A DNA stretch of 64,000 nt from Candidatus Enterousia sp. (GTDB taxonomy: Bacteria; Pseudomonadota; Alphaproteobacteria; Rs-D84): the NCBI GenBank assembly GCA_045587125.1, contig JAZNBN010000020.1, positions 1,796 through 65,795 of the forward strand, given 5' to 3'. The notes under the pieces were generated by a model that saw only the letters and a list, made by a program, of their open reading frames with translations, did no database searches and was not told where the DNA came from. Positions 7,462 through 63,756 of this stretch are shown here, piece by piece; within the stretch, counting starts at the first letter, position 1; the number at the start of each line of letters is the position of its first letter. The translations under genes and the position numbers were made by a program.

Positions 7462-7501
7462 ATATTCTTATAATAGAACATCTAAAACAAAAGGCAAGTT
7501 T

Positions 7502-8491: not shown

Positions 8492-8576
8492 TTGGTTATA
8501 TTTATTTAATAACAATTATTGCCAGAATAAAGTAATATTCAGTATCGTTAAATTATAAAAAAAAGTGAGTTTTATT

Positions 8577-9374: not shown

Positions 9375-9378
9375 AAAA

Positions 9379-12973: not shown

Positions 12974-13108
12974 CTCTGGGTTAATCTTAGCAAAATTGTA
13001 AAATACGGTGCAAGTGAATAATAGGGTTAAAAAATAAAATTTATATGCATAAATAAATTTTTCTTGTTGCAATTATGTTGAAATTGGGTTATATTTCTTT
13101 GGCTTTAT

Positions 13109-13195
13109 GGGCATATGGCGGAATTGGTAGACGCGCTAGTTTCAGGTACTAGTGGTAGCGATACCTTGGAAGTTCGAGTCTTCTTATGCCCACCA
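13109..13195 (+). tRNA. tRNA-Leu (anticodon CAG)
   Basis: Cloverleaf with acceptor GGGCATA/TATGCCC, long variable arm, anticodon loop TTCAGGT, T-loop GTTCGAGTC, encoded CCA. Confidence 0.8.
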
Positions 13196-13205
13196 GAAGT
13201 TTTTT

Positions 13206-13281
13206 GGGGTTGTAGCTCAGCTGATAGAGCGCTACGTTCGCATCGTAGAGGTCGTGGGTTTGAGTCCCATCAGCTCCACCA
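13206..13281 (+). tRNA. tRNA-Ala (anticodon CGC)
   Basis: GGGGTTGTAGCTCAGC...; G3:U70 Ala identity pair; anticodon loop TTCGCAT; T-loop TTTGAGT; encoded CCA. Confidence 0.8.
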
Positions 13282-13301
13282 ATTTTGATAAAAAAGTCTT
13301 C

Positions 13302-13388
13302 GGGGATATGGCGGAATGGTAGACGCTGAGGACTTAAAATCCTTTGGTCATTGCGACCGTGTGGGTTCGAGTCCCACTATCCCCACCA
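13302..13388 (+). tRNA. tRNA-Leu (anticodon TAA)
   Basis: GGGGATATGGCGGAATGGTAGACGC..., long variable arm, anticodon loop CTTAAAA, T-loop GTTCGAGTC, encoded CCA. Confidence 0.8.
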
Positions 13389-17140: not shown

Positions 17141-18480
17141 TGTATTAAACTGTCGCATTGTTGTTGCAAAATAGTTATTTCATTTTGAATGCGTTGTATT
17201 AATGCAGGGTATGGGTCGTTTGGAACAGAACTGTCCCCGTTTATTAGACGCCAATTATAGCAAAAATTTTGTGTGTCTGGGATATATTCCACATATGCAT
17301 TTGCAGGTGGTTCACCGTTACAATATCTGGTGACGCATTCTGGCGCCCATGCATCATCTTTCCATAATCCATCCCACCATGATGCAGGTTTGTCCGAACC
17401 ACCCTGTAAACATTGACGAACCCCCGGACGTTTTACAGTCATTTTGCCATCTGATGATTCAACACCACAAAACATATATTCACCTATTTGTGCCTGGCGT
17501 TGACCCTTGTTAAAGGCGGTATTACAACATGTAAATAGACCAGTTTCTGGATCGTGCAAACAATCTGTTTCCGAGAATAATTGTGAACCTGCGATTACTG
17601 TACCAAGGACTGTGCCAACAATTGCACCAACACCATTACCAATTACAGGTACAGCGGTACCAATTGCCATACCTGTTGTTAAACCGCCAACTGCACCTGC
17701 AAAAAGATTGCCTACGCTGTGTTTGTCTTTGCCTGTGACGGTAGAGGCAACAGTCAAAACGCCCCCAACCCCTGCAACAGCTGTACCAACTTTTGCGGCT
17801 GTACTCATACCTTTCCAACCCTGGGGTGTAGTGTTTGCAGGTGCCTGATTAGTTGATTGGTTTGTGCCAGCACCTGTTTGAGTTGCAGCTTGATTCGTAC
17901 CTGCGCCCGTTTGAGTCGCTGCTTGATTTGTACCTGCACCCGTTTGAGTCGCTGCTTGATTCGTACCAGCACCTGTTTGAGTCGCTGCTTGATTCGTACC
18001 TGCGCCAGTATTTGTCCCATTTGGTGGTGTTGCTGATGACGGTGTTGTTCCACTTGGAAATGCTGTGCCGGATGTCGTAACATTAGGAGTTGTTGGTGTT
18101 GGCGCAGATGTTGTGGCAAATTGATTCGTACCTGCGCCAGTATTTGTACCATTTGGTGGTGTTGCTGATGACGTTGTTGTCCAACTTGGAAATGCTGTGC
18201 CGGATGTCGTAACATTAGGAGTTGTTGATGTTGGCGCAGATGTTGTGGCAAATGGTGTAATTGGAATTGGTGTAGAAGTTGGTGGCATATTTCTGATGTG
18301 GTCTGGCATTCCTGTGGTGCTAACGAATTGACCATTTACTGCGTTACGAAATCTGTTGTCTGGTGTTCTTATCAGTTGTACATCTGGATCATTCCATGCG
18401 GCACATAATGCGCTGTTTGTTGTCATCGCAACAAAACAAGAAAGCGCAATATTAAAAAGAAGATATTTTTTGTGTATCAT
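17137..18480 (-). CDS. secreted Thr/Pro-rich repeat protein with Gly-rich hydrophobic region and Cys-rich C-terminal domain
   Basis: Signal peptide. Tandem peptide repeats (QAATQTGAGTN x5 and a ~43-aa unit x2). GxxxG-rich segment AVGGLTTGMAIGTAVPVIGNGVGAIVGTVLG. C-terminal domain with about 10 Cys. Overlaps flanking genes by 4 nt. Confidence 0.6.
   Translation of the reverse strand: MIHKKYLLFNIALSCFVAMTTNSALCAAWNDPDVQLIRTPDNRFRNAVNGQFVSTTGMPDHIRNMPPTSTPIPITPFATTSAPTSTTPNVTTSGTAFPSWTTTSSATPPNGTNTGAGTNQFATTSAPTPTTPNVTTSGTAFPSGTTPSSATPPNGTNTGAGTNQAATQTGAGTNQAATQTGAGTNQAATQTGAGTNQAATQTGAGTNQSTNQAPANTTPQGWKGMSTAAKVGTAVAGVGGVLTVASTVTGKDKHSVGNLFAGAVGGLTTGMAIGTAVPVIGNGVGAIVGTVLGTVIAGSQLFSETDCLHDPETGLFTCCNTAFNKGQRQAQIGEYMFCGVESSDGKMTVKRPGVRQCLQGGSDKPASWWDGLWKDDAWAPECVTRYCNGEPPANAYVEYIPDTQNFCYNWRLINGDSSVPNDPYPALIQRIQNEITILQQQCDSLIQ
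17861..18250. repeat. nested in-frame tandem DNA repeats (about 33 bp x5 followed by about 130 bp x2) inside the Thr/Pro-rich gene
   Basis: Direct repeats visible in the sequence (e.g. cctgtttgagtcgctgcttgattcgtacctgcgcc recurring). The second block is duplicated nearly identically at about 17998 and 18128. Confidence 0.75.
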
Positions 18481-19367
18481 AAATATGTTCCCTTTAATTT
18501 GCATTTTGATAATTCAATATTTTGTTGCTGACATTGTTGCAGTGTTTTCAAATCTTCAACCAATATTTGATATTTTGCATTGGAATTTGTGCAATAAGCA
18601 TTTTTTTGTTGTTCAACTCGCTTGCGACGTGTAAGAAATTCTTCCTCTGATTCTATTTCAATTTCTGTGTATGCACGACTGTCTTTATATGGTTCATAGC
18701 CCTTGGTTTCGTTTGCGATGCGTTCCGCAAATGACAAATCTGCGTATGTGGCTGGAAAACTGGCACGTTGCAGGCCAACGTTGTTTGCACCATTTTGGTT
18801 TTGTAATGATTCCAGTTCGTTTTTGCGTTCCTGCATTTCTTTGGCCCATTCAGGAACATTTGGGGCAAATGGATTTGGAATGTTTATTCCCGAATCGTAT
18901 GCGTTCGGATTTGGTGCGGTTGCATTTGGAAAAGCAACATGCCCAGACGGACCAGATGTTGTATAGTTTGCCTTGTATTGTTCAAATGCACTGTCCAAAT
19001 ATCCAGAACATGACGATATATAATTGCCATCAGATATTCGTGACAGTTGTAATAACACAGCAGGTCTAATGTCGTTTAATGTGGTGCTGGCACAATTGTT
19101 TAACAGTGCACACTGGGAAATAATTAAATTATAAACGATTGTTTGACAATCTTCTGAATCAATCTTGGGACCAGTGGCGTATACAGGTTGTGGCATACGC
19201 ATGTTGTATGGCCCATTTGGATCGTATCCAGGTTGGGTCGAATATTTTTGTACGTTTTGAATAACGCCGTATTGTGAAAATGGTGATGGAGATGAGGCAC
19301 GTGACGAATATGTGCAAAAAATGCAACCTGTCAATAATGCTAAAATACTGGGGTTATTCACTCTCAT
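18477..19367 (-). CDS. lipoprotein, unknown function
   Basis: Signal peptide with lipobox LLTGC. Ser/Pro-rich linker. Acidic coiled C-terminus. Confidence 0.55.
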   Translation of the reverse strand: MRVNNPSILALLTGCIFCTYSSRASSPSPFSQYGVIQNVQKYSTQPGYDPNGPYNMRMPQPVYATGPKIDSEDCQTIVYNLIISQCALLNNCASTTLNDIRPAVLLQLSRISDGNYISSCSGYLDSAFEQYKANYTTSGPSGHVAFPNATAPNPNAYDSGINIPNPFAPNVPEWAKEMQERKNELESLQNQNGANNVGLQRASFPATYADLSFAERIANETKGYEPYKDSRAYTEIEIESEEEFLTRRKRVEQQKNAYCTNSNAKYQILVEDLKTLQQCQQQNIELSKCKLKGTYL

Positions 19368-20609: not shown

Positions 20610-22859
20610 ATGCAAAACGAGAGAGAAAATATTTTTCAGCCACTGACCGCGATTGATTATGATATCGCAGGTAATTCTTTTCGGGCGTATTATGATTCGG
20701 ATAATAAACTGGTTTTTGTTATTGATTTCGTAACCAATGCCATTAAGCCTAATGTTTTGTTGGTTATAAATCCTGATGGTGACAGAAAGTGGGACGATAT
20801 TTTAATGAACGATTACGGGGTTGATTTAGAAACCGTTCGTCCAAAGCAAGACAATAAATATCAAAAGTTGGATATAGAGTATACCGGTTTGTCTGTTTAT
20901 GATAATTTAATTCAGGTCTATAATAATGGTGATGATATATCAGACGAAATTTCGTATTTAGATGCATTTCATCATGATGCGGCGTATCGTGCCGCCCAAG
21001 AACGCTTTGAAGCCGCAGAAATGACGGCGGACCGTACCCGTGAAACAATTGACAGAACGATGGGGGTTATTGCAGAGTTGCAGGCACGTTTAAAAGTTCT
21101 GCGTTCCAAATTGGCTTTGCAACGTAAATCTATTGGTAAAGAACCAACCAAGAAATCTGCGTCCAAGATTTTGCGTACTGAATCACAAATAGACGCAACA
21201 AATGAAAAACTGATGCGTGCAAAAAAACGTCTGACAAATGCAAAACGCAGGTTGGTCGTTGCCGAAGAGGATTCAGAGGTTGCACGTTCAATACTAAATA
21301 AATTAGGTGGTGTTTCAGAATTGCCTGCAAAACCGTTAAACACAGCGGTCGCGGTGAAACAAAACCCACCTGTCCCGGTAAAAAAACAAGATATCGAATA
21401 TACAGATACAACAATAGAGGCTGAAAAAATGGCTGATAATAACGAAGAAGTAAAACCTTTATTTGATACAGATCCTGAAATCATAGATGAAGATATTGCT
21501 TTTAAACCAATCGATTTTGGTTCAGGGTCAGATAGTAATGATGACGAATATCAAACAAATGTTCAAGTCGAAGAACAGCCCACGGTATCTTTTGAACCTA
21601 TCCCTGGGATTCCAGATGTGCCAAGTGCGGTTGAAACACCTGCGATTCAGCCTGTGGAATTTACACCACCGACCAGTTTTGAATCGTTTGAACCTTCTGA
21701 AAATACAGGAAATGAATATGGTATGCCTGGGGCATTTACCCCTGCCCCGATTGTGGAAGAAAATACTAATGAATATGAAACGTTGACTGGCTGGGGTGAT
21801 GACAATGCTGTCGTGCCAGATGTGAACACTTCATTTGGTAACACAGTAACATCGGAAACTTTGGCCGAAGAATTCCAAATGCCGATTACACCTGCACCGG
21901 TTGCCCCTGTGACACCTGTGGTTGATAATGAAAAAACTTTTTCAGAAATAGAACCTGCACCGGTGGATTCTGGTATGCGTCCCGTTTCCCCAATAACACC
22001 AGATGTTCCAGTTGCACCGTCTGATACAGATACGAATATAACAATTCAACGGTCCAGACCTTCGTTTGTTTACTATATTTTATTGATTTTATTGATTGGG
22101 TTGTCTGTATTTACTTTGTGGATGTATCAAAAATCTACAAATGGCAATTTGCCTGAATTGGGTGCGAAAACTCAGGTTGAAGAAACCATAACAGAACCTG
22201 TTGTGGCAGAACCAGAAGTACAGATTGTTGAACCTGTTGTGGCAGAACCTGTGGTTGTAGAACCGGAATACGTTGAACCAGAACCGGTTATAGAAGAACC
22301 AGTTGTGGAACCAGAACCCGTCATAGAAGAACCGGTCGTTGAACCAGAACCTGTTACAGAAGAACCAGTTGTGGAACCAGAACCAGAATTTGTGCCAGAT
22401 ACAACATCTGCATCTGTTATAAAGTCTTTGCGTTATACCGAAGAAGTGCCAGAACCTGTTGTTTTGGAAACGGAAGAAGAAATATTGGCTAAAAAGCCTG
22501 CGTATGGTGTTTCGCAAAACGAACAAATGTTTGTTTCAGAATATGAATCTGATGCAGATATGAATACAGAAATGGATTTTGTTGCATATGATACAGGTGT
22601 TATTACATATGATGAACCATCGGTTGTTACAACAACAACGTATGAATCAGAAGAAATTATTGCATACAATGAACCTGATGTTTATGCGGACGATGTTTTT
22701 GTAGAAGAAGTTGTAGAAGAAGATATTGAAATGTGTGCAGATGGCGGTTACCCAAGTCCAGAAGGTTGTTGTGCAGGGGAAGTTTATACGCATGTTGGAA
22801 ACGGCGAATATGTATGTTGTGTTCAATCAACAGGTGAATGTTTCCCGCCAATGCGTTAA
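20610..22859 (+). CDS. acidic coiled-coil/repeat protein with one transmembrane segment and a Cys-rich C-terminus, unknown function
   Basis: 749 aa. TM segment FVYYILLILLIGLSVFTLWMY. (EPVVEPEPV[IT]E)n repeats. C-terminal CADGGYPSPEGCCAGE...CCVQSTGEC. Confidence 0.55.
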   Translation: MQNERENIFQPLTAIDYDIAGNSFRAYYDSDNKLVFVIDFVTNAIKPNVLLVINPDGDRKWDDILMNDYGVDLETVRPKQDNKYQKLDIEYTGLSVYDNLIQVYNNGDDISDEISYLDAFHHDAAYRAAQERFEAAEMTADRTRETIDRTMGVIAELQARLKVLRSKLALQRKSIGKEPTKKSASKILRTESQIDATNEKLMRAKKRLTNAKRRLVVAEEDSEVARSILNKLGGVSELPAKPLNTAVAVKQNPPVPVKKQDIEYTDTTIEAEKMADNNEEVKPLFDTDPEIIDEDIAFKPIDFGSGSDSNDDEYQTNVQVEEQPTVSFEPIPGIPDVPSAVETPAIQPVEFTPPTSFESFEPSENTGNEYGMPGAFTPAPIVEENTNEYETLTGWGDDNAVVPDVNTSFGNTVTSETLAEEFQMPITPAPVAPVTPVVDNEKTFSEIEPAPVDSGMRPVSPITPDVPVAPSDTDTNITIQRSRPSFVYYILLILLIGLSVFTLWMYQKSTNGNLPELGAKTQVEETITEPVVAEPEVQIVEPVVAEPVVVEPEYVEPEPVIEEPVVEPEPVIEEPVVEPEPVTEEPVVEPEPEFVPDTTSASVIKSLRYTEEVPEPVVLETEEEILAKKPAYGVSQNEQMFVSEYESDADMNTEMDFVAYDTGVITYDEPSVVTTTTYESEEIIAYNEPDVYADDVFVEEVVEEDIEMCADGGYPSPEGCCAGEVYTHVGNGEYVCCVQSTGECFPPMR
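22193..22400. repeat. in-frame tandem repeats of about 30 bp encoding EPVVEPEPVIE units
   Basis: Repeated gaaccagttgtggaaccagaaccc... units visible in the sequence. Confidence 0.6.
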
Positions 22860-22878
22860 AATAAATATGGCTTAGTAT

Positions 22879-25227
22879 ATGAGAGTGATATTAAGTTTTT
22901 TTGCTGTGTTGTTGTTCATGTCTTTTGATATGGGGGCGTATGCTGCCCTTAATGCATCGGGAAATAGCAGTTCACCTGCATGTGCGGGTAAAGATAAAGC
23001 GGTTACATTAACGGATCGTTGCCCCAGTGTTCCACAGTTGAAATTGCTTGGGAATCAATCTTTAAAAGATAACGAATTTTTATACGCTAGTTACAGTACA
23101 TACGAATCTTTGCAAAAAGAATATAATAAAAGACCTGCGGCGTGCAGAACATATTTTAGTACCAATCAAGCCAATGGTGTTTATGAGTGTGATAAAGATT
23201 ATTGTGGCAGATATACTGTATTGATAATGGATAAAAATCACGGTTTTAATGGAAAGACAGTGGCTGATAAACGTGCATATATATGTGATACTAATGTTGA
23301 TGATAGATGGATTCCATATTCACATAACATATCTGAATGCACAAAAGGTCAGATGGATACAAAGTCTTATACAAAAATCAAGGGACTGGACGGTTTACAA
23401 TACAGATATAAAAAAGATGCTACAAGAATTACTTCTATATGTCAGGTTCCTCAGGATAAATCAAATGTTCAACAAACAGGCGATAATACGGTATCTAAAA
23501 CCGGTACTCAGGGGGCGACACGTTCGGAAACAAAACCAGATGGTGAAACAACAGAAGATAAAACGCCCAAAAAAAATACGGTAGAGAAACCACAACCAGA
23601 ACAATCAACAAATAAAACACAACATGAAAATGTGGGTGATGAAAAAATTGGTCAGCCTTGTACGACAGAAAATGCAAAAAAGGCTGTTTGGCAAAAAATT
23701 GATAAAGAAATCAAATGTGTTGCCAAAGAATGTAATCAGGACAGATATTTGGTTGTGAATAGTAAAGGTGAATCTCAAGGGTACTGTATTGCGAATACTT
23801 GCAAGGCACCAAAAACATTAAATATTATTGACGGAACAAAAACTGATAAAAGGTGCGTTGACCCCGCTGCATCGGAAATTGCAGAAGAAACAATCGAAGA
23901 AGATGTTGAAGAAGAATTACCAACTGTGCCATTCAGACCAGATTTACAAATTAACCAGCCATGTGCACAAGGTTTTTTGACGATATTAAACGCAAAGACC
24001 GGTAAATATGCTAAGCATGCAGGTTCTGATGATATTTATTGTGATATAACAGAATGTAATGAAAATTTTGTGAAAGTATCACGAAATCAAGGTGAAACGT
24101 ATGATGATTATAATGGAGTGAATTTGTACGAAATATGTGAATGTCCTAGTGAAACTCATACTATAAATAATGAAGGTAAATGTGTTGCAAATACGAATGG
24201 TGTGCCTGCAACGGATAGAACACCTGCTGAAGCTAATGTTAGTATAACAGTACAAGGCACGATTAACGATAGCGCAGGTAATTGTCTTGCGAATGCAGAG
24301 ATTGTATTTCCAGATGGTGCATATATAAATCAAGAGGGTTGTAACTTTACTGTTGGATTACAAGAATCTGGCGAAATTACTTTTTCATTTGATGGTTATG
24401 AATCTGTATCCAAGAGTTATAGTGAAAGTGTATATAATGAAATAATTGTTTTGACAAAGTCTGCAACAGATGTTGCGGTTGATGAAGGTAACGAAGCAGT
24501 TGTGCCAGATGAAGGTTTAGAAGAACAGGATAAAGAACCAATTGATAAAGAAGACGATAAAATCCAAGAATTACGTGATAAAGCTGATGCGGCACATGAA
24601 CGCGAAAATTCAATGGCGAATAAAATGTTGGGTGCGGCCGGTATCGGTGCGACCGGTATTGGTGGAATGATGCTGATGCAGGGATTGTCTGAACAAAAGG
24701 CGGATAACAATGCCCAGGAACAAATGCGCGCATATTTGTCCACATTTATGTGCAGATTTGGTGATGGCCGTGCCACGGGCGGTGAATCTGATATTGAATT
24801 GCCGGGTGCAAACGCATTATTACCACTTTATGCCGAATATGTAACATTGGCAAATGAAACCAAGGCTATGAAGACAGAACTGGATTTAAAACCAGGTATA
24901 GAATCTGAAAGTATCTTGGATAACGCAACATCTGGTTTGTATGATGATGAAAATACTGGCAAAACATCTGGTGCATTTGCTTCATTGGCACGTGCATTAC
25001 AAAACCCAGATGGCGAAGATGCGAAAAAATGGGCCGAACAAACTGAAAAAGCATCTAAGAACATAAAAACAGGTGCGATTACTGCGGGTGCCGGTGCGGT
25101 TGGCGGATTGGTTGGTCATATTACTGAAAGTGCGGTTTATAAAAAGAAGGCTGAAAAAGGTAATGAAGATTCAGACGATGAATCTGAAGATAAAAAATAT
25201 AAACCTAAAAAACGTGGAAGAAGTTAA
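22879..25227 (+). CDS. secreted cysteine-rich protein (782 aa) with C-terminal Gly-zipper hydrophobic segment and Lys/Glu-rich tail
   Basis: Signal peptide MRVILSFFAVLLFMSFDMGAYA. About 50 Cys. Segment MLGAAGIGATGIGGMMLMQGL. No recognisable enzymatic motif. Confidence 0.55.
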   Translation: MRVILSFFAVLLFMSFDMGAYAALNASGNSSSPACAGKDKAVTLTDRCPSVPQLKLLGNQSLKDNEFLYASYSTYESLQKEYNKRPAACRTYFSTNQANGVYECDKDYCGRYTVLIMDKNHGFNGKTVADKRAYICDTNVDDRWIPYSHNISECTKGQMDTKSYTKIKGLDGLQYRYKKDATRITSICQVPQDKSNVQQTGDNTVSKTGTQGATRSETKPDGETTEDKTPKKNTVEKPQPEQSTNKTQHENVGDEKIGQPCTTENAKKAVWQKIDKEIKCVAKECNQDRYLVVNSKGESQGYCIANTCKAPKTLNIIDGTKTDKRCVDPAASEIAEETIEEDVEEELPTVPFRPDLQINQPCAQGFLTILNAKTGKYAKHAGSDDIYCDITECNENFVKVSRNQGETYDDYNGVNLYEICECPSETHTINNEGKCVANTNGVPATDRTPAEANVSITVQGTINDSAGNCLANAEIVFPDGAYINQEGCNFTVGLQESGEITFSFDGYESVSKSYSESVYNEIIVLTKSATDVAVDEGNEAVVPDEGLEEQDKEPIDKEDDKIQELRDKADAAHERENSMANKMLGAAGIGATGIGGMMLMQGLSEQKADNNAQEQMRAYLSTFMCRFGDGRATGGESDIELPGANALLPLYAEYVTLANETKAMKTELDLKPGIESESILDNATSGLYDDENTGKTSGAFASLARALQNPDGEDAKKWAEQTEKASKNIKTGAITAGAGAVGGLVGHITESAVYKKKAEKGNEDSDDESEDKKYKPKKRGRS

Positions 25228-44652: not shown

Positions 44653-47091
44653 GTGAAAGGTCTTTTTAAACATTTTGGCAAGGTTTCTGCGATACTGACA
44701 ATGTGTGTTGGTGTTGGCAATTTGTATGCGGCCCAGGCACCAAATCCGCGTGGTGCATCGCATTCTGATGTTCGTTCCGATGTACGCAGTGGTGTACGTG
44801 GTGATGGTAGTTCTGCAAATGTTGTTTCCCGTGGTGCAACGAATCGTAGTGTGGTAAGTAATGGGCGTGGTACGGCGGCACGTACGGCGGTGGCCCCTGC
44901 CCGTGCTACGACGGCGCGCACTGCCACAAATACCAAGGTTGTTGCAATTCCGAAACGCACAAATGCGACCAATGTTCGCAGTGCTGTTCCTGCGACGACT
45001 GCACGCAGTGCGGTTGCGGGGGTAAAAACTGGACGTAATTCTGGAAATATCAAAATAACCAAGGCTGGGTTGGGACGTGCGGCACGTGCAACGGCTGTGT
45101 TTTCTGATATTTCAAAAATTGGTGGTGGTTATGGTCAATGTCGTGATTCGTATGCTACATGTATGGACCAGTTTTGTGCAAACGCAAATGATACATACCG
45201 TCGTTGTTTTTGTAGTGGGCGTTTTACAGAATTTCGTGACACAGAATTGGCGTTGGGCGAAGCCAAGGTTTTATTACAGAAATTTGAAGATAATAATTTA
45301 AATGCAGTTGATAAAACTGCGGCTGAGGTTAATGCAATGTACACCGCCACGATTGGCGAGGCTGCAATTAAAAATGACGTCAGTGGTGCCCAGTCTATAT
45401 TAAATGAAATTGGTGATTTGTTGTCTGGTAAAAAGAAGGCGGGGCAGCAACAGGAAAGCCAAACAATGGATTTAGGGTCTTTGGATTTTACTGTTAATAT
45501 TGATGATATTTGGGGGAGTTCTAATTCCATGTTTGATTCTGGTGGGCGTAGCGGTCCAAATATGGCAGAATTAGAAGGTAAATCATTATATAACGAAGCC
45601 AGCAAGCAATGCTTGGAATTGACATCGGATGCATGTACCAGTAGTGCTGTGTTAAACATGGCGACCAGTGCATATGACATTATGATTACCCAGGATTGTA
45701 ATTTGTACGAAAAAAAGATTGATTCCCAACGTGAAGCGGTTATGAAAACAGTGCGCGAGGCTGAAAAGATTCTGCGTGAAGCACGTCTGGAAGAATATCG
45801 TTCCCATAATTCTGCGGACGTAAACGAATGTATTACAAAGGTAAAAGCTGCTATATTACAGGATACAGCCTGTGGTGAAGATTATAAACGTTGTTTAGAT
45901 TATTCTGGTGTATATGTTAATCAGACAACGGGCGAACCAATTTATTCACCACGTTTGTTTGAAATGAATAAATTAATAGAACTGGAAGGTGCAACAGGTA
46001 ACCTGGATGTTTTGGGACAAAACAAAGCGTTTAATGATTTCTTGGATTCTAAGCGTGTGTTTGCAGAGACAGCATTAGATTCATGCCGTGGTATTGCGGA
46101 TACAGCATGGACAGAATTTAAGCGTACTGCCCTGATTGAAATTGCCCAGGCCCAAGATGAAAAAATAGAAGAAGTCAAAAATTCATGCGTTGAAACAATG
46201 GCAGAATGTTATGATGCACAGTCTGGTGCATTGAAATCATTTGATAATACTAAATCACAATACACGGGTGCGTTATCCGTTGCAGCGGCTAAGAATATGT
46301 GCCAGGACAAAGTGACGGCATGTGCGGCATTGTATGGAAATAATACAGCTTGTAAGATTGATGGTAATGGCAAGATTACAAATCCAAAGGAATGTGGGGT
46401 TGGAGAATTGTTGACCTTTGTGGATACTGTTGATACGATTAAAATGAATGAAGGCTGTGCTGAGGCATTAACAAACTATGTAACCAAAGATTTGTGTGTC
46501 CCATTGGCTAGCGAGGCAAATCGTGCATATCCGTGGGGATGTCGCAATTTAAGTCAGGAAGATTTGCGGTCGTCTATTATGGCACGTGCCAAAGAATATT
46601 GTGTGAATGTGCCAGATACTGGTTGTGAAGAGGAGATTAATTCCACAACATTTGATTCAAGTTCTTCGGATTGCGTAACAGTTAATAATTTGATTGAAAA
46701 TGTTAAATCTGAAATGTCATATATGTTTAGTGATGAATGTACAAATTTGGGCGGTATTTGGATTGATAATGAAGATGGCGCTTTCGGCGCAGCTGGAAAT
46801 TATGTGTCGACGGTTAATATTGGCGGTACGGGGCTGACAGAGTTTTATCTGGCGATGAATGCGGGTACGATGCAAGAAAGTGAGAAGTCGATTGGTATAT
46901 ACGGAAATTGTTATCAAAATTCAGTGAAAACACAGTGTGAATTATATGGAACAGATTCGGGTGCAACATATAATGAAACAACCGGACAATGTGATTTTGA
47001 TGATACGTGGTATGAAGCGCAATGTGCATTATTGGGTGGGTATTTTGAAGGGAATACATGTTATTATGATAAGGAATCACAACAAAAATAG
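44653..47091 (+). CDS. secreted cysteine-rich protein, paralogue B of the ~810-aa family (CMDQFC...YRRC core)
   Basis: Signal peptide MKGLFKHFGKVSAILTMCVGVGNLYAAQA, then a basic Arg/Ser/Thr-rich low-complexity region, then a Cys-rich domain co-linear with the 10529..12973 product. Confidence 0.7.
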   Translation: MKGLFKHFGKVSAILTMCVGVGNLYAAQAPNPRGASHSDVRSDVRSGVRGDGSSANVVSRGATNRSVVSNGRGTAARTAVAPARATTARTATNTKVVAIPKRTNATNVRSAVPATTARSAVAGVKTGRNSGNIKITKAGLGRAARATAVFSDISKIGGGYGQCRDSYATCMDQFCANANDTYRRCFCSGRFTEFRDTELALGEAKVLLQKFEDNNLNAVDKTAAEVNAMYTATIGEAAIKNDVSGAQSILNEIGDLLSGKKKAGQQQESQTMDLGSLDFTVNIDDIWGSSNSMFDSGGRSGPNMAELEGKSLYNEASKQCLELTSDACTSSAVLNMATSAYDIMITQDCNLYEKKIDSQREAVMKTVREAEKILREARLEEYRSHNSADVNECITKVKAAILQDTACGEDYKRCLDYSGVYVNQTTGEPIYSPRLFEMNKLIELEGATGNLDVLGQNKAFNDFLDSKRVFAETALDSCRGIADTAWTEFKRTALIEIAQAQDEKIEEVKNSCVETMAECYDAQSGALKSFDNTKSQYTGALSVAAAKNMCQDKVTACAALYGNNTACKIDGNGKITNPKECGVGELLTFVDTVDTIKMNEGCAEALTNYVTKDLCVPLASEANRAYPWGCRNLSQEDLRSSIMARAKEYCVNVPDTGCEEEINSTTFDSSSSDCVTVNNLIENVKSEMSYMFSDECTNLGGIWIDNEDGAFGAAGNYVSTVNIGGTGLTEFYLAMNAGTMQESEKSIGIYGNCYQNSVKTQCELYGTDSGATYNETTGQCDFDDTWYEAQCALLGGYFEGNTCYYDKESQQK

Positions 47092-47118
47092 AGAAAGCTC
47101 TTCTGAAAGGTGGACAGA

Positions 47119-48541
47119 TATGAAAAGAATGATGTTGTTTTTGATGATGTTTGTGTATATAACGCCATTGTTTGCACAAAGTAAGGGTGATGGTGCGTTG
47201 TATTACAATGATTGGGTTGTTAGTGACTCTATTCCTGATGATGCGTGTGATGTAAAGTCAAAAGATATGGGGTTGACAAAGCTCGCCGTTGAATGTAATG
47301 CAACTAGAATGACGGTGGCTACTGTTGTAAATGATAATTATATAGGTTATAAGGGGCAAGAGTATGTTGCACGTGAAATTAATCGATATGGTGCCAAGTT
47401 TTGCAAAACGGTTATAGGTGGTTATCGTAAAAATTGTCATTTTATGTCATATACCAGATATTTTGAGCCAGAGGTTCAGGATTGTTTTTGGTTGTGTAAG
47501 GAAGGGTATTATGGTGAATCATGCATGTCAACCGCATTGACCAGTGTGACCCCCCAGATACCGATGGAGCAATTTTTAATTAAAAAGCCGAAAGACGGTG
47601 TTGGTGCGTTGGCACCTTTTGGTACATCTGGGGATAATATAGAGGAACAAATCCCTATGTTTAGAGCGAATGAAGGGATAGATTGTTGGGATTGGAAAAA
47701 TCGTGCAGGTAGTTCATGTGACTATACAGATCATTTTGAAGATCTATATTCCGATGATCCAGAAGAACACGATATGATTTTGGCTGTGCAAAGTATAGGA
47801 AGTACGGATTCAAAATTCCAAATAAAGGTTCAACCATTGCTTTTACGTGCAGGCGCATCACAATATTGCTCTGGCAATGAAGCGGCATGGAATGCATGGC
47901 CGATGATGAAATTTGTAGGAAAACCAATATCTGTTTGCCCGTCTGATTATAAACAGGAAAAAAACAGTGATGGTACCATTAATTGTATAGATCCAGAAGC
48001 GCTGTCAAGACAAGAAAAGGCAAGTGTAGAAGCCTTAAAGGCTGATAAGCTGTCGCATTTATGTTCGTCTGATGGTTATCAATCTTCGTTATTCAAGGAT
48101 GAAATACATAATTTGGTGGTTGTTGATAAAGATACCAAGCAAATCAAGAAAGAGGGAGAGCAGCCAACGTTAGATGACGTTTATGATTGGTATGATAAGA
48201 ATGCGTGTGCTATATACAAGTGTAAATCGGAAGGTTTGGCATTTAAATCGGATTGGAAAACATCTGGCGATATGGGGTGTTATGATTGTACGGGGGGTAC
48301 TGGACGTTTTGGTATAGATAAACTGGGGGTGTGTATAAAATGTGATGATGGTCAGATTTTCATTGATGGCGAGTGTAAAGTAGCCAGCACGTTGTCAAAA
48401 ACTGATATGTTATATGGGATGGGTAAAACTTCTTCGACTAGCTTAGCTGATATGTGTTGGACCGAGACTAACCCTACATTATATAAATGTTGTGTTTCGA
48501 ATAACCAGATACCTGGTGCTGCTGCGTGTAACAACAAATAA
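47119..48541 (+). CDS. secreted cysteine-rich protein (about 474 aa), unknown function
   Basis: Signal peptide MKRMMLFLMMFVYITPLFAQS and about 36 Cys. Start 28 nt after the paralogue B stop. The longer ORF from 46937 overlaps the upstream gene. Confidence 0.55.
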
Positions 48542-52512: not shown

Positions 52513-53445
52513 ATGGCTGTTGGTAAATTTAGAAAGAAATTTGCACATTTAATAACGTCTTTGATTCCTTTTAGACGTCCCAGAACATTTGTTTATCATT
52601 TGATATGTAATCCAGATTTGTCCGGACGTTGGCACAGGTTTGTTCAGGGACGTAAAATGTGGGCCGATGAAAAACAGCGTAGAAAAAGCGGTGTTAAATA
52701 TCCGTATAAATTGTCTGTTGTTGCAATTATGAAAAACGAAGGTCCGTATTTGCGGGAATGGATTGAGTATCATAAATTAGTTGGTGTGGAAAAATTTTAT
52801 CTGTATAACAATGACAGTACCGATGATACAGTTAAAATACTGGCACCGTATGTTAAAAGTGGTTTGGTTGAATTAATTGATTTCCCAGGCGAAAAGAAAC
52901 AAATTCCTGCGTATAACGATTGTGTGGCACGTCATAAAATGGATACAAAATGGTTGGCTTTGATTGATTTAGATGAATTTATCGTGCCTGATTCTGGTGG
53001 GGATAAAGTAACAGATATCTTGGATAAGTTGTCAAAACATATATCTCAGATTTGGATAAGGTGGGTCTTTTATGGTTCAAATGGCCATATAACAAAACCT
53101 GATGGATTGGTAACGGAAAGTTATACAAAACGTGCCAAGAAACAAACGTGGCATTATAAATCTATTGTAAATCCCAGGTTGGTATTTTCAACAGGCTGTC
53201 ATGAACAGGTTGTTGCAAAGCGTACAAAACAAATGCCAACCAAGGTTATTCGTATAAATCACTATTTTTGTAAGTCTTGGGAAGAGTTTTCTAAACGTGC
53301 GGGTCGTGGTGATGCGTTTAATGGGACTCAGTTTGGAATTAAAAGATATACCAGACAATTCTTTGATTCACGTGATAAAAATGATGTTGAAGACAGAATT
53401 ATGGATAAATACCTGGCTCAATTACGTAAAAATTTAAGAAAATAA
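52513..53445 (+). CDS. GT-A-fold glycosyltransferase (family 92-like; DxD = DLDEF)
   Basis: Motifs LSVVAIMKNEGPYLREWIEYH, YLYNNDSTDDT, WLALIDLDEFIVP. The true start may be the internal ATG near 52657. Confidence 0.55.
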   Translation: MAVGKFRKKFAHLITSLIPFRRPRTFVYHLICNPDLSGRWHRFVQGRKMWADEKQRRKSGVKYPYKLSVVAIMKNEGPYLREWIEYHKLVGVEKFYLYNNDSTDDTVKILAPYVKSGLVELIDFPGEKKQIPAYNDCVARHKMDTKWLALIDLDEFIVPDSGGDKVTDILDKLSKHISQIWIRWVFYGSNGHITKPDGLVTESYTKRAKKQTWHYKSIVNPRLVFSTGCHEQVVAKRTKQMPTKVIRINHYFCKSWEEFSKRAGRGDAFNGTQFGIKRYTRQFFDSRDKNDVEDRIMDKYLAQLRKNLRK

Positions 53446-53486: not shown

Positions 53487-53519
53487 TGGGTAAGCAAAAA
53501 AATTTAAGGAGTGAATATT

Positions 53520-55415
53520 ATGGGAAAAGTATTAGGTATTGATTTGGGTACAACTAATTCAGCCATGGCTTTTATGGATGGAAATGAACCAAAAATCATT
53601 GAAAATGCCGAAGGACAACGTACAACACCATCTGTGGTGGCGTTGACATCGGGTGGTGAACAATTGGTTGGTATTACAGCCAAGAATCAGGCCGTAACAA
53701 ATCCAGAAAATACAATTTATGAAATCAAACGTTTGATGGGATTGCGCTTTGATAGCCCTGCGGTCAAAGAAATCGCTGCACGTGTGCCATATAAAATTGT
53801 TTCGGGTGATAATGGTGACGCATGGGTGGAAATGGACGGCAAAAAATATGCCCCATCTCAGATTTCTGCTATGATTTTGGCAAAATTGAAAAAAGATGCA
53901 GAAAGTTATTTGGGTGAAACGGTAACTGATGCTGTTATTACGGTGCCTGCATACTTTAATGACTCACAACGTCAGGCAACCAAAGATGCCGGTCGTATTG
54001 CAGGTCTGAATGTTTTGCGTATTGTTAATGAACCAACCGCCGCAGCGTTGGCATATGGTTTAGACAAAGGTAAAGATGGCGTTATCGCTGTGTATGACTT
54101 GGGTGGTGGTACATTTGACGTTTCTATTTTGGAAATCGTAGATGGTGTATTTGAAGTTAAATCAACAAATGGTGATACGGCATTGGGCGGTTCTGACTTT
54201 GACGCACGTATTTTGGAACATTTGATTGCAGAATTTAAATCACAGACAGGTATTGATTTGTCTGGTGATAAATTGGCTTTGCAACGTTTGAAAGAAGCAG
54301 CTGAAAAAGCAAAAATTGAATTGTCGTCTAAGACATCAACAGATATCAATTTGCCTTTCTTGACGGCAGATGCATCTGGTCCAAAGCATTTCAATACAAC
54401 ACTGACACGTGCAAAATTGGAATCTTTGGTTGCGGATTTGATTGAACGAACAATTGAACCTTGCAAAAAGGCTTTGAAAGACGCAGGTTTGGAAAAATCT
54501 CAGATTAACGAAGTTATCTTGGTTGGTGGTCAAACACGTATGCCAAAGGTTGCAGAAACAGTAAAAGAATTCTTTGGTCGTGAACCACACAAAGGTGTTA
54601 ACCCAGACGAAGTTGTTGGTATGGGGGCTGCAATTCAAGGCGGTGTATTAAAAGGCGATGTAAAAGACGTTCTGTTGTTGGACGTTACGCCATTGTCTTT
54701 GGGTATTGAAACATTGGGTGGTGTATTTACACGTTTGATTGACAGAAATACAACAATCCCAACCAAAAAATCTCAGGTTTTCAGTACAGCAGAAGATAAT
54801 CAATCTGCGGTAACTATTCGCGTATTCCAAGGTGAACGTGATATGGCGGCTGATAACAAATTGTTGGGTCAATTTAATCTGGAAGGTATTGCAGCTGCTC
54901 CACGTGGTATGCCACAAATTGAAGTTTCTTTTGATATTGACGCAAACGGTATCGTTCACGTATCTGCAAAAGATAAAGGCACCGGTAAAGAACAGGCAAT
55001 TTCAATTAAATCTGATGGTGGATTGTCCGAAGATGAAATCAAACGCATGGTTGATGAAGCCGCTGCAAATGCCGAAGCCGATAAAAAGAAACGTGAATTG
55101 GTCGAAGCGAAAAATACGGCTGAAACAGCAATCTTTACAATTGAAAAGTCTTTGAAAGAACATGGCGATAAAATCAGTGAAGATGAAAAGAAAGCAATTG
55201 AAGAAGCAAAACAGGCATTAAGTGATGAACTGGCCAAAGCAGATGCAACTGTTGAATCTTTGAAAGAAAAAACTGATGCGTTATCAGAAAAAGCAATGAA
55301 ATTGGGCGAAGCCGTTTATAAAGCAGCCCAAGCAGAACAAGCCACATCAGATGGTGAACAGCCAAAGAAAAATGATGATGGCACAGTTGATGCAGACTTT
55401 TCTGAAAAGAAATAA
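53520..55415 (+). CDS. dnaK: molecular chaperone DnaK (Hsp70)
   Basis: N-terminus [22 protein letters not shown], full substrate-binding domain and acidic C-terminal tail. The longer ORF starts 9 nt upstream (track 53511). Confidence 0.95.
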
Positions 55416-55446
55416 AAAAATCCCCCCGTTTGGGGGATTTTTTTTA
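55414..55446 (+). terminator. rho-independent terminator after dnaK
   Basis: Hairpin ATCCCCCCgtttGGGGGAT followed by T-run. Confidence 0.65.
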
Positions 55447-55526
55447 TGATTAAACCCCAAAGAATATTATTGACAATTGTTTGTTTGGTATAGTATTATT
55501 ATAATGACTAATATAGGGGTTATACA

Positions 55527-55940
55527 ATGAATATCAAAAAAACAGTTAAAGATATCTTGGCACGTGAATATAACTTAAAGTCTGTTGAAGAATATATGGT
55601 ATTTTCGACTGACTTAAAGTTTCGTAATTTGGATATGGTTGTATTTATGATGTTGTTGGAACAGGAGTTGGGGTATGGTTTGCCTCGTGAAATATCCACT
55701 GGGTTCAGTTTGGGATCCAAAATGACAGTTGGTGATTTGATTAAAAAGGTAGAGTCCTATCCTGTTGCTGGATTATATAGGGTGGTTGATGGTAATGCTA
55801 TATGTTGTCTGAGTGATAAAAAATGTTCAAAAATATCAAAAAAAGAAGTTGCTCAGAATAAGGATTTTGATAATTTATGCGCACAACGTAAATGTGTGTT
55901 GGAATGTAATTTTCAAAGATTAAAACAAATAATAAAATAA
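55527..55940 (+). CDS. acyl-carrier-protein-like domain (attachment Ser replaced by Asn) fused to Cys-rich C-terminal extension
   Basis: Residues about 10-80 align with the ACP helix II region: STDLKFRNLDMVVFMMLLEQELGYGLPRE versus [30 protein letters not shown]. Consensus promoter TTGACA-N18-TATTAT upstream. Confidence 0.5.
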   Translation: MNIKKTVKDILAREYNLKSVEEYMVFSTDLKFRNLDMVVFMMLLEQELGYGLPREISTGFSLGSKMTVGDLIKKVESYPVAGLYRVVDGNAICCLSDKKCSKISKKEVAQNKDFDNLCAQRKCVLECNFQRLKQIIK

Positions 55941-55949
55941 GGATAAAAA

Positions 55950-56660
55950 ATGACTATTGCAGATAAAGTTAAATCTTTTTTGAAAAATGATTTGGCTTGC
56001 CAAAATGTAACAGATGCTATGTTGTTAAAGGCAAATCTGAAACTGGACGAATTAGATGTTTATGAATTGATACATGCGATTGAATGTCAATTTAAAATTT
56101 CTTTGCCAGATTCAATTGGAAAAGATTATGCCAAAGGTGTTGATTGCACAGTTGCTGAGTTAATACGGAAAATAGAAAATGGTGCGAATAAAAATATGAC
56201 GCAGACTGTGGTCGGTCAACCATCAAAAATAAAATCTGTTGTTTTAAATAAAACAGAAATAACAGACAGACATTATATTGTAGAATTTTATAACCCTTGG
56301 TGGGGACGTTTTGCGATTGATTTTAAATATGATAATGCGTCACATGCAGAACATAATATGTTGAATATAATGCGTGTTGGGGATTATTTTATGGTCAAAG
56401 GTAAACCCAGTAATGCAGAGGTAAATGACGTTTGTGAATTTAGTGTCGTTAGATATATGCGTCAGGAAACAGAAGCAGCACGCAAATCAGGACGTGAATT
56501 GAATATTCCAAATATGTCTGTTCGTGAAATGGATAATTTGGCAGATAATATATTGGATATGTTGAATCAATATAAAAAGCAAGAATTTGCCGATATTCAA
56601 AATGAAAAACAGAATTTTTTAAGTAAAATAAAACAAAAAATTTTAGGTTTAGGCAAATAA
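55950..56660 (+). CDS. second ACP-like domain protein (attachment Ser replaced by Glu) with ~155-aa C-terminal domain of unknown function
   Basis: ANLKLDELDVYELIHAIECQFKISLPD aligns with the ACP DSLD-helix II region. Starts 10 nt after the previous gene. Confidence 0.5.
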   Translation: MTIADKVKSFLKNDLACQNVTDAMLLKANLKLDELDVYELIHAIECQFKISLPDSIGKDYAKGVDCTVAELIRKIENGANKNMTQTVVGQPSKIKSVVLNKTEITDRHYIVEFYNPWWGRFAIDFKYDNASHAEHNMLNIMRVGDYFMVKGKPSNAEVNDVCEFSVVRYMRQETEAARKSGRELNIPNMSVREMDNLADNILDMLNQYKKQEFADIQNEKQNFLSKIKQKILGLGK

Positions 56661-56690
56661 AAAATCCCCATATTGGGGATTTTTTATTTC
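56659..56690. terminator. bidirectional rho-independent terminator
   Basis: Hairpin ATCCCCAtattGGGGAT flanked by A-run and T-run. Confidence 0.6.
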
Positions 56691-57763
56691 TGTTCGCCGA
56701 TGTAAATTCCCATGTCATACGCAACGTCCAGCAAAGGATTGTCTGGTGATACGTATGCGTTTGATGTCATTAAATTCGGAATTTTTGGATCACGGACGAC
56801 TTCGCCAGATTCAATCATTTCAGATAATGCAACTGTTTTGCATTCATCGCCAATCAATGCAGTCATAACGTTTGTTTCGTTGTTTTCAATTGCATGTAAT
56901 GCACAGTCTGCGAAACGTGTCGCCAATATACGATCTGCGGCGGTTGTGTCCCCTGCCCGTTGGGTGTGTTCTGGAAATGCGGTTCTGTTTACAATTCCGG
57001 CGGCGGTTAATTTACGCGATATCATGTCGGCAGGTTTGCCGGAATGTCCACGTAATGTTATGCCTTCGGATACCATGATAATTCCATAATCTGGCTTAGA
57101 TTTTTTTATATGTTTTACCAATGCGTCTATATCAAATTTAATTTCGGGTATCAATATCGCAGATGCACCAGTCGCAACCCCGGCGTACAATGCCAGATTT
57201 CCACAATCGCGTCCCATGGCTTGGACTACAAACCATCTGTGATGACTGCGTGCGGTCAGTATTAATTGGTCGCAATATGATGTCAATTGTTGAACAGCGG
57301 TATCAAATCCAATTGTACGGTCAGTCAGTGGAATGTCCATATCAATTGTTTTTGGAATACATATTAATTGCAAGTCTTTATATATTTGTTTGTTGTCCCA
57401 TGCCAAAGAAATACTGCCGTTGCCACCGATTAAAATTAACGCATCCAGTTTCAATTCAGACAAAGATTGGTGTAATTTTTTGTTAAATGCGGCAATGCGT
57501 CCACGTTCCAATGCGGTTTCAAAGTTTAATGCGTTTGCGTATCCGTTGTGCAGAAAACTGCCCGCCAGACGTGCGTTTTCAATAGGTATCATTAAATCAT
57601 TTAATAAAACCGCCGCAGGTGGCGTTGTACACAGTCCGTCTGTGCCGTCTAAGATACCCCAAACCTGCCATTTACGTAGTGTGGCACCACGGACAATACG
57701 TTGAATTGCGGTGTTTAATCCACTGCAATCACCCCCCGTTGTCATAATTCCAATCTTTTTCAT
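56684..57763 (-). CDS. pfkA: 6-phosphofructokinase (PfkA family)
   Basis: Motifs GIMTTGGDCSGLN (cf. GGDAPGMNA), LILIGGNGS (cf. GGDGS), PKTIDMD, AMGRDCG. Confidence 0.8.
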   Translation of the reverse strand: MKKIGIMTTGGDCSGLNTAIQRIVRGATLRKWQVWGILDGTDGLCTTPPAAVLLNDLMIPIENARLAGSFLHNGYANALNFETALERGRIAAFNKKLHQSLSELKLDALILIGGNGSISLAWDNKQIYKDLQLICIPKTIDMDIPLTDRTIGFDTAVQQLTSYCDQLILTARSHHRWFVVQAMGRDCGNLALYAGVATGASAILIPEIKFDIDALVKHIKKSKPDYGIIMVSEGITLRGHSGKPADMISRKLTAAGIVNRTAFPEHTQRAGDTTAADRILATRFADCALHAIENNETNVMTALIGDECKTVALSEMIESGEVVRDPKIPNLMTSNAYVSPDNPLLDVAYDMGIYIGEQK

Positions 57764-63426: not shown

Positions 63427-63700
63427 TCTTGGTCGGGTTTTCTTCCAACGCCACAATCCAAAAATAAAACCGACCACAAGGGTCGGCTATATTTTTGGTG
63501 CGGGCGAAGGGAATGTCTGATTCCCATGTTCGTTTTCACTCCATGGGCCCCTTTCGCTACGTAAGACTCGAACTTCGTATTCACTTGTTCTCGTCAACTG
63601 ACGCCCCGAACCCTCTTGGTCGGGTTCTCTTCCAACGCCACAATCCAAAAATAAAACCGACCACAAGGGTCGGCTATATTTTTGGTGCGGGCGAAGGGAA
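63427..63700. repeat. direct duplication (about 88 bp x2, 190 bp apart) of the tRNA-Gly 3' end (19 nt) together with its terminator hairpin and flank
   Basis: Copy A about 63427..63514 and copy B about 63614..63700 share tcttggtcgggtt[t/c]tcttccaacgccacaatccaaaaataaaaccgaccacaagggtcggctatatttttggtgcgggcgaagggaat. Copy B continues into the intact tRNA-Gly; copy A is followed by unrelated sequence. Confidence 0.8.
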
Positions 63701-63756
63701 TCGAACCCTCGTCTTCAGCTTGGGAAGCTGACGTGCTGCCATTATACCACGCCCGC
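63683..63756 (-). tRNA. tRNA-Gly (anticodon CCC)
   Basis: Reverse complement GCGGGCGTGGTATAATGGCAGCACGTCAGCTTCCCAAGCTGAAGACGAGGGTTCGATTCCCTTCGCCCGCACCA. Anticodon loop TTCCCAA, T-loop TTCGATT, encoded CCA, followed by terminator hairpin CCGACCcttgtgGGTCGG and T-run. Confidence 0.8.

Follow-up and report, generated by a model that had tools for sequence, protein, structure and literature searches.

What is left for an acyl carrier protein (ACP) to do once the serine that holds its phosphopantetheine group is lost? ACPs are best known for lipid synthesis, and they also have protein-binding roles that are less well understood, with mitochondrial complex I, LYR proteins and MukB. The question is raised by two small open reading frames (ORFs), ORF1 and ORF2, in a 64,000-nucleotide stretch of DNA from Candidatus Enterousia sp. 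(assembly GCA_045587125.1, contig JAZNBN010000020.1, positions 1,796 to 65,795), hereafter the window, to which all coordinates refer unless a comparison locus (L number) is given. ORF1, of family A (55527..55940, forward strand), codes for 137 amino acids that form an ACP-fold domain and a Cys-rich, basic tail. ORF2 (55950..56660, forward strand) follows head to tail after a gap of 9 nt and codes for 236 amino acids; it is a fusion of a gene for an ACP domain with Glu at the attachment position, ACP(Glu), and a gene for an orphan domain, X. What can be taken as secure is that this is a real, conserved and co-located ACP-derived pair without the canonical attachment serine, joined to two orphan modules. 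Our tentative reading, to which we give somewhat less than an even chance, is that the two proteins, made from one transcript and still functional, descend from an array of ACP-derived genes, have lost the serine and serve as interaction modules independent of a prosthetic group.

A first-pass annotation had described both N-terminal regions as ACP-like, and several lines of evidence bear this out, although each sequence by itself resembles ACPs only weakly. Against the NCBIfam model TIGR00517, ORF1 gave E=6e-4 (19.7 bits) and ORF2 E=4.9e-8 (32.7 bits), both to be read against a curated cut-off of 70.45; against PF00550, ORF2 scored 12.1 bits (threshold 20.8) and ORF1 was without any match. 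The PDB sequence matches of the two proteins, found with phmmer, are nearly all ACPs, the best one for ORF2 being the plant mitochondrial ACP 7ar7_T (E=4.5e-4). Moreover, a profile built from the ORF1 family retrieves canonical ACPs (E=6.7e-9, in a search of 5.8 billion sequences), and many members of the family carry a precomputed Pfam PP-binding match. The ACP-fold domain of ORF1 spans residues 1-78 (55527..55760, forward strand); its model was made with AlphaFold2 from an alignment of 41 sequences and compared with the PDB using Foldseek. The predicted local distance difference test score (pLDDT) exceeds 90 over most of the domain (77-96 per block of 10 residues), the four ACP helices fall at residues 3-15, 34-48, 54-59 and 68-76, and all 50 best PDB matches are ACPs, with a target-normalised template modelling score of about 0.8 and a root-mean-square deviation of about 1.8 A over about 78 residues. 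On this model, the N-terminal domain of ORF1 is an ACP homologue with an ACP fold. The ACP(Glu) domain of ORF2 covers residues 1-80 (55950..56189, forward strand). The ORF2 model is poor overall (pLDDT 54; 64-81 over residues 1-80) and places helices at residues 3-14, 34-48, 55-61 and 68-83, the same pattern as in ORF1; because the model is poor and a fold search with it was uninformative, the fold of ORF2 rests on sequence homology. The four-helix fold that the first-pass annotation implied for both proteins is thus upheld by structural matches for ORF1, and for ORF2 it is predicted from helix pattern and homology; by sequence, both N-terminal domains are ACP homologues.

The position of the attachment serine was located with HMMER alignments and with a MAFFT alignment that included E. 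coli AcpP. In both, the serine column of the DSLD motif is occupied by N34 in ORF1 (RNLD; codon AAT, 55626..55628, forward strand) and by E34 in ORF2 (LDELD; codon GAA, 56049..56051, forward strand), as had been proposed at the outset, and no alignment put a Ser there. Within residues 20-52, Ser and Thr are limited to S27 and T28 in ORF1, six to seven residues upstream of the column, and to T21 and S51 in ORF2. With no Ser or Thr nearer to the column than six residues, the earlier conclusion that neither protein can be phosphopantetheinylated stands for the canonical site, where modification of ORF1 or ORF2 should not be possible. The net charge of the ACP domain is 0 in ORF1 and -3 in ORF2, versus -15 in E. 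coli AcpP and -10 to -14 in two canonical ACPs. The acidity typical of carrier proteins, strongest on helix II and used for docking to enzymes, is therefore mostly lost in both domains along with the serine. The ACP(Glu) subfamily keeps Glu34 throughout (L001, L002, L005, L016, L018 and L020).

A search for orthologous pairs found an ACP-derived array in the dnaK-pfk slot of relatives, where pfk is a phosphofructokinase gene. All homologues came from metagenome-assembled genomes (MAGs) of human and animal gut that are labelled "Alphaproteobacteria bacterium" or Candidatus Enterousia. Each relative examined has between one and four small genes in the slot, made from three modules. Type A, the ORF1 family, consists of an ACP domain, a variable low-complexity linker and the Cys tail, and the attachment residue is Ser in 21 of the 41 cluster representatives, the remaining 20 having Asn, Asp, Glu, Tyr or Lys; the type-A copy of L021 has Ala. 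Type B, domain X followed by an ACP domain, has an intact FDSLD, and type C, a stand-alone ACP of 90-128 amino acids, mostly has Ser, with Gly in one copy (L022). Since many relatives in the array keep the serine and the replacements vary, serine loss is derived and has recurred; since relatives retain the residue, the ancestors of ORF1 and ORF2 were probably true carriers. The Ser-bearing domains of family A are acidic, with a mean net charge of -8.8. The first-pass annotation had suggested that the Glu of ORF2 would mimic a phosphorylated state. Glu is conserved and constrained (dN/dS about 0.2) within its own subfamily, but the same column holds Asn, Asp, Tyr, Lys, Ala or Gly in sister paralogues, so that a negative charge there is no general requirement. 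The window pair is thus the serine-less end of a lineage-specific, tandemly duplicating, ACP-derived array. Three other leads on the array were followed. Some of the small paralogues weakly match DUF1493, a lead that went nowhere, the literature having no functional account of that family; no repeated recombination element of the kind found at integron cassettes occurs at the gene ends, the repeats there being terminator hairpins and duplicated gene starts; and a phage or mobile origin was rejected, with no relatives in 2.9 million viral contigs and an integrase adjacent in one genome only. The literature yielded nothing specific on serine-less bacterial ACPs or on ACP-like immunity proteins.

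The C-terminal part of ORF2 had been described as an extension of about 155 amino acids belonging to no known family. The second half of that description stands: we found no match for it, or for domain X within it, in Pfam, NCBIfam, PHROG, PADLOC or the PDB sequences. The first half does not, as ACP(Glu) (102-110 amino acids, with a basic C-terminal helix of its own) and X (120-146 amino acids) are separate, adjacent genes in L016 and L020. ORF2 has thus arisen recently by the fusion of two genes, which close relatives still keep apart. By comparison with the L016, L018 and L020 proteins, a linker of residues 81-92 (56190..56225, forward strand) takes the place of the basic C-terminal helix of the stand-alone ACP(Glu). 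The fusion is no assembly artefact, since the fused ACP-X form occurs in the window, in L002, in L004 and in cluster P0001 (19 member sequences). Domain X itself, residues 93-206 (56226..56567, forward strand), has 50 invariant positions, among them those in EFYNP-WG-F, NM-N-MRVGDY, EFS and IPNMSVRE-LAD; its model is unreliable (pLDDT <60). An exhaustive profile search of 1.84 billion representative proteins gave seven matches, about five of them genuine clusters; P0145 and P0146, considered as X relatives, are spurious repeat proteins. No X was found in 2.9 million viral contigs. Distant relatives (P0003-P0019) have the opposite order, X-ACP(Ser), so that X has been fused to an ACP module twice, independently and with the order reversed, classic indirect evidence of two domains that work together. 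X also occurs as a stand-alone protein, is missing in L018, and is the sole occupant of the slot in the more distant L012.

Other X-like proteins are found elsewhere. Small ORFs with X-like motifs lie by cassette genes at L002 7437-7808 and L015 63-500 (YNEKWGEFA...GLKQGDVV; AGDIIEYK); these may be very divergent stand-alone X paralogues, and for the former, of 123 amino acids, hhalign gave a probability of only 39%. In L013 (24-1112) and L014, a stand-alone X protein, P0144, the same as that behind dnaK in L012, lies directly behind a fragment that by eye resembles a restriction enzyme or helicase; the fragment differs in base composition and could reflect a strain variant or a chimeric assembly.

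The tail of ORF1, residues 79-137 (55761..55937, forward strand), is basic (isoelectric point 9.2) and predicted to form a beta-hairpin and three short helices. It had been called Cys-rich, and indeed it holds six Cys residues (93, 94, 100, 118, 123 and 127) and the string quoted by the first-pass annotation. Four of these are invariant across the family, in the pattern C93-x6-C100-x17-C118-x4-C123, as are Y84, E107, L117 and N128, with an overall identity to ORF1 of only 31-40%; in all, the tail has 10 invariant positions across the whole family. In the model (pLDDT 51-75), the hairpin covers residues 84-93 and the helices run from residue 105 on, and the x6 and x4 Cys spacings are atypical for a zinc ribbon or treble clef. 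A profile of the tail found no match in Pfam or the PDB sequences, and no such tail occurs in 2.9 million viral contigs. The tail is a putative metal-binding module. In family A, exact tandem duplications lengthen the linker that precedes the Cys tail, as seen in L010 (10211-10354; 72-nt units, 96% identical); P0062, P0063 and P0056 likewise have an expanded linker, giving proteins of 143-230 amino acids with the same two end modules.

A further feature is common to several of the modules. The C-terminal segment of ORF2, residues 207-236 (56568..56657, forward strand), is basic (net charge +4) and ends in an amphipathic motif, FLSKIKQKILGLGK, common to other cassette proteins. Of 29 cassette proteins of mixed module types, 23 have Lys as their last residue, frequently in the form -QK(T/H)K, versus 16 of 50 other window proteins, and a hydrophobic-x-x-K-I-K-Q-K motif stands near the end of 7/29 versus 0/50. 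Because the pattern was defined after the sequences had been viewed, we take the motif as a lead rather than a test; an amphipathic helix that targets the membrane is one candidate for it, a docking peptide in common use another.

The first-pass annotation had also assigned the pair to a transcription unit of its own, and predicted signals, all of them consensus matches, agree with this. Upstream lies dnaK (53511-55415, forward strand), which ends in a G+C-rich hairpin with a T run, AAAAAATCCCCCCGTTTGGGGGATTTTTTTT (55415..55448, forward strand; repeat family D2), containing a terminator-like site at 55421-55436 and predicted to insulate the pair from dnaK. A sigma-70-like promoter, TTGACA-18 nt-TATTAT (55470..55499, forward strand), matches the consensus at 11 of 12 positions; the counterpart of the promoter, ribosome-binding site and start region is duplicated before both family-A genes of L010 (repeat D2). 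Downstream, pfk (56684-57763, reverse strand) converges on ORF2, and a perfect 16-bp hairpin between them, AAATAAAAAATCCCCA / TGGGGATTTTTTATTT (56655..56689; inverted repeat I5, its arms 100% complementary), with T and A runs on either side, is likely to be a bidirectional terminator common to both. This layout fits a separate two-gene unit of ORF1 and ORF2. dnaJ is not downstream of dnaK in the window. Between the L25 gene and dnaK lies a gene for a GT92/GT2-family glycosyltransferase (52513-53445), present in the window, L016 and L018 and absent from L002, L005 and L010, a further presence/absence difference adjoining the cassette.

Selection on the modules was estimated by pairwise Nei-Gojobori dN/dS in samples of 5-8 sequences. 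The ratio is 0.18 for the ACP(Glu) domain, 0.22 around its Glu and helix II, and 0.26 for domain X, so that both parts of ORF2 are under purifying selection, which is strong on ACP(Glu). In the ORF1 clade it is 0.62 for the whole gene and 0.85 for the serine site and helix II; three allelic types of the helix II-III segment are found there, and dS is unevenly low at both ends. ORF1 is thus relaxed and mosaic, and the allelic types and uneven dS suggest recombination in this clade.

Together, these observations support our reading of the pair as interaction modules: the serine and the acidity are lost, ACP(Glu) and X are constrained, the tail cysteines are invariant and no carrier-loading or acyl-handling enzyme adjoins ORF1 or ORF2. 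It is also supported by the retention of the pair in genomes of less than 1 Mbp (PMC12306168), and by the precedent of an essential ACP that lacks the prosthetic group (PMC8547962). In the mechanism we envisage, both proteins would have given up carrying acyl groups; the ACP(Glu) domain would bind domain X, or act in cis with it, and the ACP-fold domain of ORF1 would be a scaffold for its four-Cys, basic and probably metal-binding tail. The shared basic amphipathic C-termini might take the proteins to one site, the membrane or a shared partner. Several points weigh against this reading. Binding of X by ACP(Glu) is deduced from the fusions; that the tail binds metal is guessed from cysteines whose spacing is unusual; the ACP fold of ORF2 is without confirmation by fold search, the whole model being of low confidence; and the selection estimates come from 5-8 sequences that show signs of recombination. 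In addition, parts of the system may be dispensable, since ORF1 evolves fast and X is absent in L018. A bolder version of the proposal, in which the ACP fold has turned scaffold, with ACP(Glu) bound to an orphan partner and the second ACP module bearing a zinc or iron-sulfur tail, as an independently evolved alphaproteobacterial counterpart of the mitochondrial ACP in its non-lipid roles, in a reduced-genome gut symbiont for which a lack of lipid synthesis is reported, strikes us as improbable.

The relaxed evolution of ORF1 also bears on a rival explanation, that the genes are decaying leftovers: former specialised carriers of an acyl-transfer pathway now gone, with ORF1, and perhaps ORF2, drifting to loss. 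Candidatus Enterousia belongs to the uncultured order Rs-D84, with genomes mostly below 1 Mbp, a coding density of about 90%, no respiration and a proposed partner-dependent lifestyle (PMC12306168; comparison locus L005 is from a MAG of that study). Genome reduction is under way in the lineage (PMC12306168), as decay would have it, and the absence of the serine from both genes, the lost acidity, the ratios of 0.62 and 0.85 in ORF1 and the variable content of the slot (X absent in L018, ACP(Glu) truncated in L010, fused to a dnaK fragment in L001) all point the same way. The explanation fits ORF1 best. It meets a difficulty in ORF2, where ACP(Glu) and X are clearly constrained; moreover, the ORF1 tail keeps its 10 invariant positions family-wide, many independent assemblies carry the ORFs intact, a strong promoter-like site belongs to the pair alone, and the densely coding Rs-D84 genomes are not reported to accumulate pseudogenes (PMC12306168). 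We consider decay of the pair unlikely, while giving it real weight.

The slot itself is dynamic. In L010 (9435-9570), the ACP(Glu) gene breaks off after 27-28 codons and continues in frame into a second dnaK 3' end with its terminator; in L001 (8466-8858), a near-complete ACP(Glu) domain is joined in frame to a longer dnaK 3' coding end without the terminator. Lying downstream of the serine-less module, these second dnaK 3' copies are scars of duplication and recombination. From the two copies and the duplicated gene start of L010, it follows that such events at the dnaK 3' end make the array longer or shorter. Elsewhere, the same slot holds a tyrosine integrase, large proteins that by eye have leucine-rich (LRR) or BspA-like repeats, or a P-type cation ATPase (extra genes at L007 233-1423 and 3031-4524, L008 6452-7477 and L020 2874-5495), which makes it an insertion hotspot. 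Such a setting would suit a conflict or selfish module, toxin-antitoxin-like, defensive or directed at a partner cell, diversifying in an arms race. A small two-gene unit with its own predicted promoter, the three allelic types of the ORF1 helix II-III segment with near-neutral dN/dS, the dnaK 3' end duplicated around the module, the integrase, LRR-type surface proteins or ATPase in the slot and an HsdR-like gene by X elsewhere are in keeping with this, as is the partner-dependent lifestyle proposed for the host (PMC12306168). The searches speak against it: PADLOC gave no significant match (a single, chance-level TIR match in one of 19 members), PHROG matches are confined to the ACP part, 2.9 million viral contigs hold no relative, and the proteins have no recognisable toxin or nuclease domain and, by eye, no signal peptide. 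Furthermore, the chromosomal slot is constant, as vertical descent predicts. We regard a conflict module as unlikely too, slightly more so than decay.

A third possibility is a link to DnaK, in which the pair would assist or regulate the Hsp70 encoded next door, in this lineage only, and dock by means of the basic-hydrophobic peptides at their C-termini. DnaK-binding peptides in general have a hydrophobic core with basic flanks, and the C-terminal motifs have hydrophobic cores flanked by Lys or Arg; the array stands behind dnaK in every genome examined, including the distant, X-only L012, and in the window dnaJ does not follow dnaK. Yet ORF1 is set apart from dnaK by a strong terminator and a promoter of its own, the proteins have neither a J domain nor an HPD motif, and a hotspot prone to duplication at the dnaK 3' end accounts equally well for the adjacency. 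ORF1 was also considered as a DnaJ-like protein and rejected, with no HPD motif and no CxxCxGxG repeats seen by eye. A functional link to DnaK is, in our judgement, very improbable.

The rest of the window carries Gram-negative housekeeping genes (BamD, MurJ, LpxA, LpxB, SecA, DnaE, TolQ/R, trigger factor, GcrA and ribosomal proteins). LpxA and LpxB need acyl-ACP. The presence of lpxA (Hexapep and Acetyltransf_11) and lpxB at 8565-10509 therefore means that lipid A synthesis calls for acyl-holo-ACP, although the lineage has been described as without lipid biosynthesis: the study reports amino acid, nucleotide and lipid pathways missing in all three lineages examined, including Rs-D84 (PMC12306168). 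The ORF upstream of lpxA (7175-8491), at the usual place of lpxD or fabZ, has no Pfam match. tblastn for AcpP, AcpS and Sfp found none in the window, which is less than one tenth of the genome. That ORF1 and ORF2 are working carriers for this lipid A pathway through a non-canonical attachment site, as the encoded LpxA and LpxB and the missing acpP might suggest, is hardly credible given that the helix II N-terminus lacks Ser in both (S27 and T28, or T21 and S51, being nearest), that the acidic recognition surface is lost and that a canonical acpP could easily lie elsewhere in the genome.

The window has further features of its own. Long ORFs of 450-850 amino acids without a Pfam match at E<=1e-5 occur at 10529-13072, 15476-18504, 20610-25227 and 44653-48541; they are lineage-specific large proteins, in line with the many hypotheticals reported for Rs-D84 genomes. 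A cluster of three tRNA genes (Leu-CAG, Ala-CGC and Leu-TAA) lies at 13109-13388 and tRNA-Gly-CCC at 63683-63756. Nearly all 2-kb bins show a positive GC skew, and the cumulative value climbs steadily from 1 to 64000, so that the window lies on a single replichore and contains neither origin nor terminus.

Neither ACP homologues without the serine nor additional ACP paralogues are new in kind. What is new here is the recurrent loss of the serine in a rearranging array, a constrained Glu variant, two orphan partner modules and the double evidence from fusions. Within one bacterial clade, the locus offers a natural series of Ser, Glu, Asn, Ala and Gly versions with partner domains fused or separate, and such a series could reveal the route from a carrier protein to a pure interaction module. 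Both X and the four-Cys tail are kept in genomes of less than 1 Mbp, where retention usually means use. If the proteins do act as scaffolds, the Ser-bearing and serine-less paralogues of neighbouring genomes would catch that transition under way. With hosts that are uncultured, the locus is of limited practical value at present.

How does the pair compare with known systems? What it shares with AcpP (TIGR00517, PF00550) is a homologous domain of four helices and about 78 residues; AcpP-type proteins are among those that the family profile retrieves, and at the same locus there are relatives with DSLD that attain the Pfam threshold. It differs in the replacement of the attachment Ser by Asn or Glu, in a charge of 0 or -3 instead of about -15, in scores far below the cut-offs, in the fusion to a four-Cys tail or to X, and in having no fatty-acid, polyketide or non-ribosomal peptide enzymes adjacent. 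Specialised extra ACPs of Alphaproteobacteria and other bacteria (such as AcpXL, NodF and RkpF; Salmonella IacP, PMC5279801; the SPT-linked ACP, PMC9386255) are likewise paralogues beside a housekeeping ACP, each with its own task, and the Ser-bearing members of the array may be of this kind; these proteins, however, keep the serine and have dedicated enzymes alongside, and the window pair has neither. The ACP-like proteins of phages (PHROG 5934 and 4154; carrier-domain proteins in BFVD) also have a small ACP fold outside lipid operons, with weak profile or structural matches to our proteins; here only the ACP part matches, and X and the Cys tail are absent from 2.9 million viral contigs.

The closest documented functional analogue would be the mitochondrial ACP of Plasmodium falciparum, which lacks the phosphopantetheine group and stabilises the Isd11-Nfs1 complex as a structural subunit in iron-sulfur biogenesis (PMC8547962). 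The putative partners differ, being in our case domain X and the Cys tail; no gene for an LYR-type partner or a cysteine desulfurase was seen among the window ORFs scanned, and nothing in this locus points to iron-sulfur assembly. Moreover, a single essential gene there contrasts with a multi-copy, rapidly rearranging array here. The mitochondrion is of alphaproteobacterial ancestry. In both cases, an ACP fold has lost its prosthetic-group site where fatty acid synthesis is lacking or, in our case, may be lacking, and is retained nevertheless, which would suit a structural or binding role; retention under selection is clear for ACP(Glu), at 0.18, and weaker for ORF1, at 0.62.

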